Positions 28,932 through 59,177 of a stretch of 64,000 bases of DNA are shown here, piece by piece. The notes under the pieces were generated by a model. The model worked only from the letters and a program-made list of their open reading frames with translations. It was not told the origin of the DNA and searched no databases. The translations under genes and the position numbers were made by a program. This DNA is from Candidatus Aenigmatarchaeota archaeon (lineage in GTDB: Archaea > Aenigmatarchaeota > Aenigmatarchaeia > CG10238-14 > SpSt-28). The stretch covers positions 318,832-382,831 of the forward strand of contig JAVYPJ010000001.1 in the NCBI GenBank assembly GCA_038733315.1. The letters run 5' to 3'. Position 1 is the stretch's first letter. The number at the start of each line of letters is the position of its first letter.

Positions 28932-29080
28932 GCCGGGGTCGCCTAGCTGGCTATGGCGGCGGACTTGAGTGACAGATTGGCGTGAAACTGATTAGAAAAT
29001 GAAAAATGATGTGGGTGTCGAAATGAGAAAGAAATCCGCTGGGCTTTACGCCCGCGTGGGTTCAAATCCCACCCCCGGCG
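28932..29080 (+). tRNA. tRNA-Ser (anticodon TGA) with 64-nt intron (28970..29033)
   Basis: Type II tRNA. Anticodon stem GCGGA/UCCGC is split by an intron after position 37. Long variable arm UGGGCUUUACGCCCGC. Discriminator G73. Exons near-identical to the second Ser gene. Confidence 0.75.
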
Positions 29081-35501: not shown

Positions 35502-35601
35502 GCCGGGGTGGCGGAGTGGCTTCACGCGGCGGGCTGCAGGGTTTTGCGATTTATGAGCGATGGAAACCCGCAGATCCCGGGTTCAAATCCCGGCCCCGGC
35601 T
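35502..35601 (+). tRNA. tRNA-Cys (anticodon GCA) with 26-nt intron (35540..35565)
   Basis: Acceptor GCCGGGG/CCCCGGC. Discriminator U73. Anticodon stem GCGGG/CCCGC interrupted after position 37. Confidence 0.75.
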
Positions 35602-40329: not shown

Positions 40330-41631
40330 ATGATAAAAGAAAATTATTTACATCCCTTTAAAGGTTTGAGAGATTTTCCTTCAGAAATTGAAATTTTGAG
40401 AAAAAATATTTTTCAAAAAATAGAAAGAATTTTTCAAAGATATGGTTTCGATCCAATAGAAACTCCGATAGTTGAAAAATGGGAAGTTTTAAAAGGAAAA
40501 TATAGTGAAGATGTTGAGGATAAACTAATTTGGAGATTTAAGCTACCATATAGCGAAAAAGAATTTGGATTAAGATACGATTTGACAATTCCTTTAGCTA
40601 GATTTTATTCAAGGTTCAAGCCAAAGCTACCCTTTAAAAGGTATCAAATTGGAAGAGTTTTTAGGTATGAAGAGCCACAAAAAGGGAGATATAGAGAATT
40701 TTGGCAATGCGATTTCGATATTTTGGGTTCGAGAAGTTTTTTAGCTGATGTAGAGATTCTAAATGTTGTTATTGATGTTTTTAAAGAATTTAATTTTAAA
40801 GATTTTTTAATTAAAATTAACGATAGAAATTTATTAGCTTTTATTTTTGAAAAGAAAACAGGGATAGAAAAAGAAAAAATAATTAAAGTTTATAGAATTA
40901 TTGACAAACTAGATAAAATAGGAAAAGAAAATGTATTAAAAGAATTAGAGAGGGAATTAAACAAAAAACAATTAAATGAGATTGAAAAAATCATAGATAT
41001 CTCTGAAATGCAAAACGAAGAAATTTTTATAGAATTGGAAAAGATTAGTTCAAAAGAGTTAAGCGAATATATTGAAAATTTAAAAAATATAATAGATTTT
41101 GTAAAGGAAAAAAATAAAATAAAAGTAGATTTATCCTTAGTAAGAGGTTTAGATTATTATACTTCAACAATTTTTGAAGCTATAGTTAAAAAACCAAGAA
41201 TTGGAAGTTTAGCTGGTGGTGGGAGATATGATAATTTAATTTCTAAATTTATAAATCAAAACGTTCCGGCTGTTGGTGGGAGTATAGGGATTGAAAGATT
41301 AATAGATGCTGGAATAGAATTGGGCTTGTTTAATCTTAATGAAAAAACATACTGTAAAGTTGGAGTAATTTTTACTAAGGAAGTTGATATCAAAAAAGTT
41401 TTAGAGATAGTAAATAGGCTAAGAGAAAATGACATAAATACGTTTATGTATTTTACTGCCTTTAAAAATATTGTTGAAGGAATAAAGGAATTAGATAAAA
41501 GAGGGATTAAGTATGCAATAATAGTAGGAAGTAGAGAGATAGCTGAAAACAAGTTTACACTTCAGAACTTAAAAACAAGAGAAAGATATACATTAAGCAT
41601 AGAAGAAATAATAAATAAGTTAAAGAGTTAG
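40330..41631 (+). CDS. hisS: Histidyl-tRNA synthetase
   Basis: Class II motifs LRYDLTIPLARFY, YQIGRVFR and GGGRYDNL. C-terminal anticodon-binding domain. Confidence 0.85.
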   Translation: MIKENYLHPFKGLRDFPSEIEILRKNIFQKIERIFQRYGFDPIETPIVEKWEVLKGKYSEDVEDKLIWRFKLPYSEKEFGLRYDLTIPLARFYSRFKPKLPFKRYQIGRVFRYEEPQKGRYREFWQCDFDILGSRSFLADVEILNVVIDVFKEFNFKDFLIKINDRNLLAFIFEKKTGIEKEKIIKVYRIIDKLDKIGKENVLKELERELNKKQLNEIEKIIDISEMQNEEIFIELEKISSKELSEYIENLKNIIDFVKEKNKIKVDLSLVRGLDYYTSTIFEAIVKKPRIGSLAGGGRYDNLISKFINQNVPAVGGSIGIERLIDAGIELGLFNLNEKTYCKVGVIFTKEVDIKKVLEIVNRLRENDINTFMYFTAFKNIVEGIKELDKRGIKYAIIVGSREIAENKFTLQNLKTRERYTLSIEEIINKLKS

Positions 41632-42626
41632 TTGTGCTCTGTAATAATAATTTCTTTCAAGTTTGGCGGGATTACTAGTTTTGGATTTCTAATCGAATAT
41701 CTTATCATTACTAATCTCTTTTTAGGACCAGGAATACTTCCTTGAATTAATATATAATCACCTCTAACAACTCCATAGTGAGAGAATCCACCTTTTGGAG
41801 TAACTTCATTTCCATTAGAGGAAATCTTTAATATTCTTTTGTTTAATTCTGTTCTTCTTTGAAAACCCAATTGACCTCTGCTAGGAATTTTTCCTGGCAG
41901 TACTCTTCCTTCACCTTGAGAACCCAAGGAACCGACATGCCTAATTTTTTGTTTTGCCTTTCTTCTTTGCTCTTTTATGCCAAATCTCTTTACTGGTCCA
42001 GCGGTTCCTTTTCCTTTTGTAACAGCTATAACATCTACAAACTGCCCCTCTTTGAATATTTCGCTAGCTTTTATTTCTTTTCCAAGAACGCTCATTGCAT
42101 ATTTTATAGCATCTTCTATTTTTCCTCCAACTTCTATTTCAAAAACTTCTGGCTTTTTCTTTTTAATTCCCGCAAGCCATGGTTGTGTACAAACAACCAA
42201 TCTAACTTTTTTTATTTTAGTTTTATTTAGCTCTTCAAATTTTTTAATTGCTTTATCATAATTACTCTTAATATTTGTTATTTTTCTTTTTAGATTTTTT
42301 GGTATTTCTTCGTCTTTTGCATATATATCTAATAGACTTTTATAACCTTTTGTAGTTAATTCATAAAATCTTACTCCAATAACTTTTAGAGGTGGAACTT
42401 CAATAACTGTTGCAGGTACAAAGTATTCCTCTTCAATTTCCTTTTTCAAGACCTTTCTTTTTCTAAGTTCTATTATATGAACCATACCAGCTTTATAGCC
42501 GGCGAAAGCTAATGGTATAGCTTTATCGTATTGGGGATATGTTTTAATAACTGGATAAATCCTTTTAGCTCTTTTTCTTGGCCAAAAGGCTCTACTTCCT
42601 GCTAATGGCTTCGAATCTTTAACCAT
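41628..42626 (-). CDS. rpl3: 50S ribosomal protein L3 (uL3)
   Basis: 332 aa. FAGYKAGMVHI and GKGTAGPVKRFG motifs. Not followed by L4/L23/L2. Confidence 0.9.
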   Translation of the reverse strand: MVKDSKPLAGSRAFWPRKRAKRIYPVIKTYPQYDKAIPLAFAGYKAGMVHIIELRKRKVLKKEIEEEYFVPATVIEVPPLKVIGVRFYELTTKGYKSLLDIYAKDEEIPKNLKRKITNIKSNYDKAIKKFEELNKTKIKKVRLVVCTQPWLAGIKKKKPEVFEIEVGGKIEDAIKYAMSVLGKEIKASEIFKEGQFVDVIAVTKGKGTAGPVKRFGIKEQRRKAKQKIRHVGSLGSQGEGRVLPGKIPSRGQLGFQRRTELNKRILKISSNGNEVTPKGGFSHYGVVRGDYILIQGSIPGPKKRLVMIRYSIRNPKLVIPPNLKEIIITEHN

Positions 42627-42663
42627 AAATTATATGTTTAAATTATTTATGTTTTAGATAAAA

Positions 42664-42713
42664 TCTGTACCTAGCCTATTTCTTCATTGTTCAGCTGACC
42701 GTCGTTTCTTCAT
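42664..42713 (-). ncRNA. Candidate box C/D-like sRNA (locus 2) or rpl3 leader element
   Basis: Minus strand reads AUGAAGA-N12-CUGA-ACA-AUGAAGA-N13-CAGA. Same architecture as the locus at 53412..53465. Contains direct repeat TTTCTTCATT and the palindrome TCAGCTGA. Confidence 0.3.
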
Positions 42714-42722
42714 TATATAAAA

Positions 42723-43292
42723 TTATATTAGAGATTTAATTATTAAATCTATTTTTTCATAAAAATCTTTTAAAGATGAATTATTTTCTATAATAAAATT
42801 CGAATTTTCTTCAATTTTGTCTAATCCAAGGTTTTTAATATCTTCTTTATCTCTTTTTAGGAATTCCTCGAAAGAAAGGTTGAAGAATTTATCTTGCTGT
42901 TTTCTTCTTTCATACCTTATTTTTGCATCAGATTTAATAAAAATTAGCCAAAAATTTTTGTTAAACTCTTTTTTAAAAACTTCTACTTCAATAACATTTC
43001 TAAAACCATCAACAGTTACTCTATCTATATTTTCTTTCTTAATTTTTTCAGCAATTTTTATTGCAAAATAATCTTCTCTTCCATATTTTTCTCGTATTGT
43101 TTTTCCAATTTCACTTAACCTTCTTTTCTTTTCTTCTAAACTCAATTTTTCTTGAATTAGATTTAGTTTTTTTGCTTCCTCTTCAATCTCTCTAGAAAAT
43201 TCAAAAGTTTCGAACCCATATTTATTTTTTAAGTATTTCGCCGCTTCGCTTTTACCGCTAGCCGCGTATCCTGAAAGACCAATTATCAGCAT
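42723..43292 (-). CDS. P-loop nucleotide kinase (dephospho-CoA kinase/CoaE-like)
   Basis: IIGLSGYAASGKSEAAKYL Walker A. About 190 aa with a lid region. Confidence 0.5.
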   Translation of the reverse strand: MLIIGLSGYAASGKSEAAKYLKNKYGFETFEFSREIEEEAKKLNLIQEKLSLEEKKRRLSEIGKTIREKYGREDYFAIKIAEKIKKENIDRVTVDGFRNVIEVEVFKKEFNKNFWLIFIKSDAKIRYERRKQQDKFFNLSFEEFLKRDKEDIKNLGLDKIEENSNFIIENNSSLKDFYEKIDLIIKSLI

Positions 43293-50647: not shown

Positions 50648-50766
50648 TGCGGGGGGTGGGATTTGAACCCACGACGGCTCTACGCCATCGGGTTTCTTAT
50701 CATTTATTCAAAGCTTAAGATTTTATCTTAAGCCCGACGCCCTTGACCAGGCTAGGCGACCCCCGC
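50648..50766 (-). tRNA. tRNA-Leu (anticodon TAA) with ~33-nt intron
   Basis: Type II tRNA with long variable arm. The anticodon stem UCGGG/CCCGA is split after position 37. The intron carries CUUAAG, complementary to the exon's CUUAAG (BHB helix). Confidence 0.75.
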
Positions 50767-53414: not shown

Positions 53415-53465
53415 TCAGAAGTACTCCTTTTCATCATTTTTCAGATGCGGCGGTATTCTTCATAA
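53412..53465 (-). ncRNA. Candidate box C/D sRNA (locus 1)
   Basis: Minus strand: AUGAAGA (C-like) - AUACCGCCGCAU - CUGA (D') - AAA - UGAUGA (C') - AAAGGAGUACUU - CUGA (D). The 12-nt guides and spacer length fit archaeal C/D sRNAs. Confidence 0.4.
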
Positions 53466-53498: not shown

Positions 53499-53637
53499 GC
53501 CGGGGTCGCCTAGCGGATATGGCGCCGGCCTCGAGTTAAATGATAAGCTCTGGGGTAGCTGAAAATAATGATGATTTTGCTATAAGAGAAAGCCGGTGGG
53601 CTTTACGCCCGCGTGGGTTCAAATCCCACCCCCGGCG
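53499..53637 (+). tRNA. tRNA-Ser (anticodon CGA) with 55-nt intron (53536..53590)
   Basis: Acceptor, D-arm, variable arm and T-arm are the same as the tRNA-Ser(TGA) gene at 28932. Anticodon stem CCGGC/GCCGG split after position 37. Discriminator G73. Confidence 0.75.
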
Positions 53638-58991: not shown

Positions 58992-59038
58992 ATAAATTTA
59001 TCAGAGATAATAAAGTTAAATTCTTCGTATAATATCAT

Positions 59039-59135
59039 TGGGGCCGCTGGGATTCGAACCCAGGTCAGCGGGTTTCTTCACTTTTCTGAGCTCCATTTCT
59101 GGAGCCCGCCGTCCTGCCATCTAGACGACGGCCCC
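59039..59135 (-). tRNA. tRNA-Trp (anticodon CCA) with ~24-nt intron
   Basis: GGGGCCG acceptor. Anticodon stem GCGGG/CCCGC split after the CUCCAG loop. Intron UGGAGC is complementary to exon GCUCCA (BHB). Confidence 0.75.
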
Positions 59136-59177
59136 ATAAATTGTTAAGATTTTTATATCTTTTCATAAAATATTTAT

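Follow-up and report, generated by a model that had tools for sequence, protein, structure and literature searches.

What is the 50-nt element that lies on the minus strand between a kinase-like gene and rpl3 in this Aenigmatarchaeota genome: the gene of a small guide RNA, or a control sequence belonging to one of its neighbors? In the stretch of 64,000 nucleotides that was analyzed (hereafter the window), it reads AUGAAGA-AACGACGGUCAG(12)-CUGA-ACA-AUGAAGA-AAUAGGCUAGGUA(13)-CAGA from 42713 to 42664, an exact match to the box order and spacings described in an earlier note on this DNA. The other features listed there are also present in the sequence, i.e., a 10-nt direct repeat, the palindrome TCAGCTGA and the short ORF MKKRRSAEQ at the element, and the short ORF MKNTAASEK at a second locus near 53.4 kb (locus B). 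The element begins 9 nt past the TAA stop codon (42725-42723) of the upstream 189-aa kinase-like gene, and the rpl3 ATG (42626) lies 37 nt from the end of box D and 87 nt from the start of box C, so that the distance first given, 55 nt upstream of rpl3, was right as to the side but only approximate as to the number. Overall, we interpret this element as an ordinary archaeal box C/D methylation-guide RNA gene of about 50–55 nt, with a predicted target in helix 93 of the 23S rRNA, a reading to which, target included, we assign a probability of about 85%. The guide reading had been put forward in the earlier note, and it is now supported by conservation among relatives, by complementarity to archaeal 23S rRNA and by published guides of the same kind for the same site.

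Table 1. Coordinates of the element, its neighborhood and the other RNA loci of the window, with the corresponding sequences of the three homologs (boxes and guides in 5′ to 3′ order).
Feature	Position	Strand	Remarks
AAA_17/AAA_18 kinase-like gene, 189 aa	42723-43292	-	upstream of the element
TTTAATAA, possible TATA box	42740-42747	-	centered ~30 nt upstream of box C
Box C, AUGAAGA	42707-42713	-	invariant, 4/4 species
D′ guide AACGACGGUCAG, 12 nt	42695-42706	-	core ACGACGGUCA at 42696-42705
Box D′, CUGA	42691-42694	-	CAGA in L022
D′-C′ loop, ACA	42688-42690	-	ACA / AUUG / AAG / GAG in the homologs; length also varies
Box C′, AUGAAGA	42681-42687	-	invariant, 4/4 species
D guide AAUAGGCUAGGUA, 13 nt	42668-42680	-	differs between species
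Box D	42664-42667	-	CAGA in the window and L011; CUGA in L015 and L022
U-tract, UUUU	42660-42663	-	directly after box D
Homolog L011/12/13 (GCA_038997575.1)			ATGAAGA-A-ACGACGGTCA-A-CTGA-ATTG-ATGAAGA-AAGGCTATTTAG-CAGA
Homolog L015-18 (GCA_038997355.1)			ATGAAGA-C-ACGACGGTCA-A-CTGA-AAG-ATGAAGA-AGGGTGTCGAATT-CTGA
Homolog L022/23 (GCA_038997915.1)			ATGAAGA-C-ACGACGGTCA-G-CAGA-GAG-ATGAAGA-AGGGTGTCGAATT-CTGA
Locus B, second C/D sRNA candidate	53415-53463	-	divergent from tRNA gene
tRNA, Rfam match	28932-29080	+	
tRNA, Rfam match	35502-35601	+	
tRNA, Rfam match	50648-50766	-	
tRNA, Rfam match	53499-53637	+	43 bits; divergently adjacent to locus B
tRNA, Rfam match	59039-59135	-	

Archaeal box C/D sRNAs carry a 5′ box C (RUGAUGA) and a 3′ box D (CUGA), which form a kink-turn with tandem G.A and G-C pairs; their spacers measure about 12 nt, and the whole RNA about 50–60 nt. 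In all four homologs of the element (the window and three relatives, see below), G3, A4 and G6 of box C as well as C1, G3 and A4 of box D are present, and deviations are confined to the 3b/3n positions of the kink-turn (A opposite U or A). Box C itself thus keeps its kink-turn-critical residues, the sole deviation being an A for U at position 5. The internal boxes are likewise found in all four (D′ CUGA, or CAGA in L022; a loop of 3–4 nt; C′ AUGAAGA), with a D′ spacer of 12 nt throughout, D spacers of 13, 12, 13 and 13 nt, and a core of 50 nt. The GC content of the element is 42% vs. 27% for the genome. No convincing terminal stem was found in the flanks of the boxes, and Watson–Crick (WC) folds were neither stable nor shared among the four homologs (z = +1.4 to −0.3), an absence of stable folding that fits open guide regions. 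The same lack of a stable or shared fold argues against a terminator hairpin or structured leader, which were also considered and rejected. Directly after box D, the U-tract is a candidate archaeal termination signal, and T-rich runs occur within ~20 nt past box D in the homologs.

The sequence AUGAAGA had been taken for an unusual box C variant and, from its presence at two loci, for the mark of a small family of guide RNAs. The string turns up, however, 90 times among 489 archaeal sRNAs listed in the literature (e.g., in Mka sR4 and sR9; PMC4644070), and this A form of box C is found in validated sRNAs, which makes it an accepted variant, and the element and locus B would therefore be two different C/D sRNAs rather than members of a special family. 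Measured against chance, the architecture is suggestive, not decisive: the half-pattern ATGAAGA-N11-13-CWGA was observed 3 times in the window for 0.15 expected (none of 100 shuffles reached 3), and a scan of the 64 kb for the full four-box arrangement, C-N(11-13)-D′-loop-C′-N(11-13)-D, returned two loci only; 30 random sequences averaged 0.1 at the mismatch level that the element needs. The other of the two is locus B, AUGAAGA-AUACCGCCGCAU(12)-CUGA-AAA-AUGAUGA-AAAGGAGUACUU(12)-CUGA, which does share the box C, the 12-nt spacer and the 3-nt loop attributed to both loci, has AUGAUGA as its own C′, and is nearer to the box consensus than the element. We consider it a candidate for an independent C/D sRNA. 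Its guides had no significant rRNA match in Haloarcula marismortui or Escherichia coli (the best, H. marismortui 23S 1619-1630 with 9 WC pairs, was equaled by 39 of 300 shuffles) and no published counterpart in the list of 489 archaeal sRNAs. A TATA-like ATAATAAA stands 27 nt upstream of its box C.

The tRNA gene adjacent to locus B, which was not called by ARAGORN, is probably type II-like with a CGA anticodon. Its long intron reads AUGAUAA-GCUCUGGGGUAG-CUGA-AAAUA-AUGAUGA-UUUUGCUAUAAG-AGAA and so displays C/D-like boxes of its own, a situation reminiscent of some Euryarchaeota, where a C/D guide is housed in the intron of tRNA-Trp. Five Rfam tRNA matches in the window have lengths of 97–149 nt (Table 1), which implies long introns; four went undetected by ARAGORN, which labels the remaining one (59038-59136) only as “tRNA-???”. 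The share of intron-containing tRNAs is unusually high for 64 kb. The window (~27% GC) also contains an archaeal SRP RNA, and homologs of its L3 and kinase proteins place it in Aenigmatarchaeota (DPANN), one kinase homolog being 100% identical.

At its curated gathering thresholds, Rfam misses both the element and locus B. No family reached its threshold at the element (sR9, sR33, sR20, sR2 and others), the best being sR9 with 19.2 bits vs. the 36 required; since the C/D models of Rfam are guide-specific, such sub-threshold scores exclude those families, not the C/D class. Of the 11 weak matches seen with permissive thresholds, 10 fell to C/D-box families. Archaeal sR families account for 8, and most of these covered the element end to end; every match was on the minus strand. 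Locus B behaved in the same way.

Four distinct homologs are available, from the window and from the genomes GCA_038997575.1 (L011), GCA_038997355.1 (L015) and GCA_038997915.1 (L022), and in each of them the element lies 7–9 nt past the stop codon of the kinase-like gene (9 nt in the window, 7–8 nt in the other three), the kinase orthologs of the three relatives being 67–74% identical to that of the window at the amino-acid level. Boxes C and C′ and the 10-nt guide core ACGACGGUCA, i.e., 24 positions, are invariant in all four. Divergence is seen in both flanks, in the D guide and in the D′-C′ loop, which differs in length as well as in sequence. Across the same four sequences, 35% of the third-codon positions of the neighboring kinase gene are invariant, and at this neutral rate the probability of 24 invariant positions is about 1.6e-11. 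Within the 12-nt D′ spacer, variation is confined to positions 1 and 12, at its two ends; in archaeal C/D RNPs, these guide ends are the positions least engaged in the ~10-bp guide-target duplex. This drift pattern is what would be expected if boxes and a functional guide were kept and non-functional parts were free to change, and we regard the conservation as the decisive argument for the guide RNA reading.

The family itself appears to be narrow. Among 185,579 GTDB species representatives (a collection that excludes the source genome), the exact core with the window's own guide ends gave no match, and with guide positions 1 and 12 relaxed the L015 contig was the sole match. The element is absent next to the more distant kinase orthologs L014, L019 and L020. 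A comparison anchored on rpl3 likewise found no element at the rpl3 loci of six relatives (72–86% L3 identity), which have different upstream genes and share only a proximal ATAAATA..ATG block; two near-identical strains (L007 and L008), with 100% identity over the region, are uninformative. At the position of the sRNA, the sister kinase orthologs of L014 and L019 (69–74% identity) are followed by another block of ~75 nt, ..GTTCCTATTGTTTAGTAGTTATACTT..CTGAT.GTT.GTAA.., which lacks C/D boxes and is kept between both (L014 5549-5663, L019 6580-6694). In L019 (4443-5285), L022 (4413-5300) and L023 (1047-1934), the gene two places upstream of the kinase-sRNA pair has a weak or faint match to PF09414 (RNA_ligase). 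An ATP-dependent RNA ligase is reported to circularize C/D sRNAs in Thermococcus kodakarensis (PMC9014305), and the neighborhood may be a coincidence.

Where would such a guide act? Numbering the D′ guide from box D′, so that the core ACGACGGUCA occupies positions 2–11, positions 3–11 form nine consecutive WC pairs with GACCGUCGU of the H. marismortui 23S rRNA, inside the block UUUAGACCGUCGUGAGACAG; the Rfam archaeal LSU consensus at this site, UUUAGacCGuCGuGAGaCAG, includes GACCGUCGU and corresponds to the 5′ strand and loop of helix 93. The rRNA complementarity proposed in the earlier note was thus recovered, with a correction: the segment near the peptidyl-transferase center was well chosen, but the guide fits its archaeal form GACCGUCGUGAGACAG (ACC) and not the bacterial GAACGUCG (AAC) that had been quoted. 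These comparisons used E. coli rRNA, the H. marismortui operon of pHMA288 and the Rfam consensus as stand-ins for the organism's own rRNA, and an Rfam search found no rRNA gene in the 64-kb window. Applied to this pairing, the N+5 rule selects the leading C of ACCG (E. coli 2590), and the equivalent nucleotide of helix 93, beside the peptidyl-transferase center, is accordingly the one that we predict to be methylated. In published target assignments, an uninterrupted run of 9 or more WC pairs that includes N+5 has been required (Dennis et al., 2015; PMC4644070), a number reached here against the H. marismortui 23S and the archaeal LSU consensus. Taken alone, the match is modest, since 18 of 300 shuffled guides equal the D′ guide in H. 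marismortui rRNA, and position 2 (A) of the guide faces the conserved A2587, which limits the duplex to 9–10 bp. If the guide does act on this site, the organism's helix 93 is predicted to read (U/C)AGACCGUCGUG.

The D guide is probably an orphan. Its best match in H. marismortui rRNA is not significant, being equaled by 234 of 300 shuffled guides, and none of its possible targets within 300 nt on either side of helix 93 in the H. marismortui 23S rose above chance. A search for targets among the tRNAs and the SRP RNA of the window gave nothing convincing.

Several other explanations have to be weighed against a guide RNA acting on helix 93. The mildest departure would keep a real C/D sRNA and send its D′ guide to helix 34 of the 16S rRNA (E. 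coli 1056-1065, N+5 = C1059), where UGGCUGUCGU of the E. coli 16S forms 10 contiguous pairs with guide positions 2–11, two of them G.U, and is the best match in E. coli; the critical position is, moreover, variable in the Rfam archaeal SSU consensus, CAuggCCgcCGuCAG. This pairing is nevertheless broken in the H. marismortui 16S by an A.C mismatch in mid-duplex, and only an unusual A in this lineage would spare it a G.U beside the target nucleotide; a metagenome scan for that variant returned a single match, in a non-archaeal SSU. No published precedent was found for the helix 34 site, whereas two published sRNAs address the helix 93 site in the register of this guide, and we judge a helix 34 target improbable. 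It requires UG(A/G)CCGUCGU in the organism's 16S, and a 16S reading GGCCGCCGUC is incompatible with it. The single metagenome match (L010 7-1307, JGI contig Ga0099817_1602988) is a very AT-rich SSU rRNA, shortened to ~1.3 kb, with UGACCGUCGU in helix 34 and a score on the bacterial model; it is organelle-like or derived from a highly reduced symbiont.

The remaining explanations would make the element act in cis. It could serve rpl3, as a promoter, a 5′-UTR element or a translated 9-codon leader ORF (MKKRRSAEQ) instead of a trans-acting RNA, and both the uORF and the promoter or 5′-UTR versions had been offered as alternatives in the earlier note: the element occupies the 37–87 nt ahead of rpl3 in the window and in L011, a short ATG-initiated ORF exists in all four homologs, and TTTATATA abuts box C. 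We hold this to be very unlikely, because the element fills a short gap separating the kinase gene from a convergent gene in GCA_038997355.1 and GCA_038997915.1, and rpl3 is found there on a different contig, preceded by mTERF-family genes; the element tracks the kinase-like gene where rpl3 is elsewhere, and the six relatives compared at rpl3 do not have it. Synteny thus appears to have largely refuted an rpl3 leader or promoter already, and the position ahead of rpl3 in this genome is incidental. The leader ORF, for its part, is not kept in length: three homologs have 9 codons, but the 4-nt loop of L011 extends it to 19, and its variable sites are nonsynonymous (K/T, A/T); a peptide would leave unexplained the invariant second box and the D box at fixed spacing past the stop codon, and the palindrome TCAGCTGA is gone in L011 and L015. 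The constant spacing of 7–9 nt from the kinase stop codon in four species could instead speak for a K-turn element in the 3′ UTR of the kinase-like mRNA, bound by L7Ae for stability or regulation and devoid of guide function, and L7Ae-binding K-turns in archaeal mRNAs are discussed in the literature (PMC5539422; Lui et al., 2018). Protein binding alone, however, accounts neither for the invariant 10-nt spacer sequence and the exact 12-nt length nor for the correct-register match to an rRNA site with published guides, and we see hardly any room for this explanation. A cis role in addition to guiding, with the two K-turns recruiting L7Ae, Nop5 and fibrillarin to the transcript, is speculative and rather unlikely: the element would still be part of the kinase mRNA 3′ end and, in two species out of the four, immediately precedes the rpl3 promoter. 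Such an action, if real, could affect termination, read-through or mRNA stability, and would couple the expression of a ribosomal protein or of the kinase to the free pool of C/D RNP proteins.

Returning to the box C/D guide RNA, the mechanism would be that of its class. As is established for the family, boxes C and D at the two ends would fold into a kink-turn, and D′ with C′ in the middle into a K-loop; L7Ae and then a Nop5-fibrillarin dimer would bind these. The conserved D′ guide would pair with the 5′ strand and loop of helix 93 of the 23S rRNA (as seen in the archaeal consensus and in H. marismortui), and fibrillarin would thereby be brought to the target residue opposite guide position 5, counted from D′, yielding a 2′-O-methyl group at the E. 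coli 2590 equivalent. When ~250 kb of DNA from the lineage were searched with tblastn for fibrillarin, Nop5 and L7Ae, L7Ae alone was matched, in L020; fibrillarin (COG1889) and Nop5 (COG1498) are used as single-copy markers of archaeal genome completeness, so that their genes are to be expected in the genome.

How the RNA is produced can be pictured in two ways. It may arise by read-through from the kinase-like gene, followed by trimming to the protein-protected core, or it may be transcribed from a TATA-like box within the end of the kinase gene. TTTAATAA is a possible TATA box for an sRNA-specific transcript, although a weak case, because the genome is AT-rich and the block also encodes D-L-I-I. 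Because the sRNA remains linked to the kinase 3′ end in all four species, the two are probably co-transcribed, or else the kinase gene houses an internal promoter.

In the window (40330-42626) and in L011 (3930-6231), rpl3 is followed by a convergent HisRS gene and not by rpl4, whereas relatives with ~86% identical L3 keep the order rpl3-rpl4 (L001–L006 were compared); in the sub-lineage of the window and L011, the break in this otherwise highly conserved ribosomal-protein cluster thus falls at the first gene. Up to three genes with an mTERF domain (PF02536) stand in tandem near rpl3 in relatives (L003 5864-8433, L001 11864-12703, L022 296-895), a family best known from eukaryotic organelles.

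To our knowledge, metagenome-assembled DPANN genomes hardly ever have their C/D guide RNAs annotated, and our literature search found no description of them for Aenigmatarchaeota. The class is well known and its mechanism is textbook; this gene appears to be a new example with a specific predicted target, and its value lies in annotation and comparison, not in concepts. With it, a methylation site that was predicted in Thermoproteota, and is probably the counterpart of one mapped in yeast, would extend to a third lineage, and it suggests that such genes can be found in AT-rich reduced genomes through their box spacing and a neighboring gene as anchor. It is tempting to speculate, more mildly, that methylation at 2590 is among the oldest and most indispensable guide-directed rRNA modifications, as the guide set of a reduced DPANN genome seems very small (2 in 64 kb) and would still include one for a site common to Thermoproteota and eukaryotes.

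Among known systems, two sRNAs of Thermoproteota come closest. The D′ guide of Ignicoccus hospitalis sR27, AACGACGGUCUC|CUGA, is identical to AACGACGGUCAG|CUGA of the window at 10 of 12 positions, has the same register and was mapped to the same 23S block UUUAGACCGUCGUGAGACAG (PMC4644070, Additional file 1); sR27 differs in coming from a GC-rich hyperthermophile, in having its own boxes, loop and D guide, and in the second 23S target of that D guide. The likeness is as likely to reflect convergence as common descent, and possible convergence of shared guides has been noted before (Dennis et al., 2015; PMC4644070). Pyrobaculum calidifontis sR30 carries the D′ guide AAAAACGGUCUG|GCGA in the same register and for the same nucleotide (Dennis et al., 2015; Lui et al., 2018). 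Its assignment is to C2864 of the 23S alignment, 16 nt upstream of C2880, which is E. coli C2606 (Dennis et al., 2015; PMC4644070), and C2864 therefore corresponds to E. coli 2590. Unlike the window RNA, whose D guide has no detectable partner in helix 93, sR30 is a double guide with a D guide that methylates the opposite helix 93 strand (C2880 = E. coli C2606), and helix 93, on this opposite strand, is the one place in the 23S for which methylation was predicted across all six thermophiles studied (PMC4644070).

In yeast, the box C/D snoRNA snR73 guides Cm2959 of the 25S rRNA, in the helix 90–93 region. With yeast Um2921 equivalent to E. coli U2552, the calculated offset places yeast C2959 at E. 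coli 2590, and Cm2959 is thus probably the same site as the nucleotide predicted here, even though snR73 is a longer, eukaryotic snoRNA that acts with Nop56, Nop58 and Snu13. Within DPANN, Nanoarchaeum equitans, the only other DPANN lineage for which we found C/D sRNAs described, shares a reduced genome and has 26 C/D sRNA genes (Randau, 2012; PMC3491384), but belongs to another phylum, has a diverged helix 93 (UAGUACGCCGCGAGGCAG), and its sR10 targets the opposite strand, at U2880. More generally, archaeal C/D genes often lie at or overlap the 3′ ends of ORFs, copies on the sense strand need to be excised from mRNAs, and orphan second guides are common (Lui et al., 2018); with its place at the 3′ end of an ORF, its sense orientation and its orphan D guide, the window locus matches all three points.
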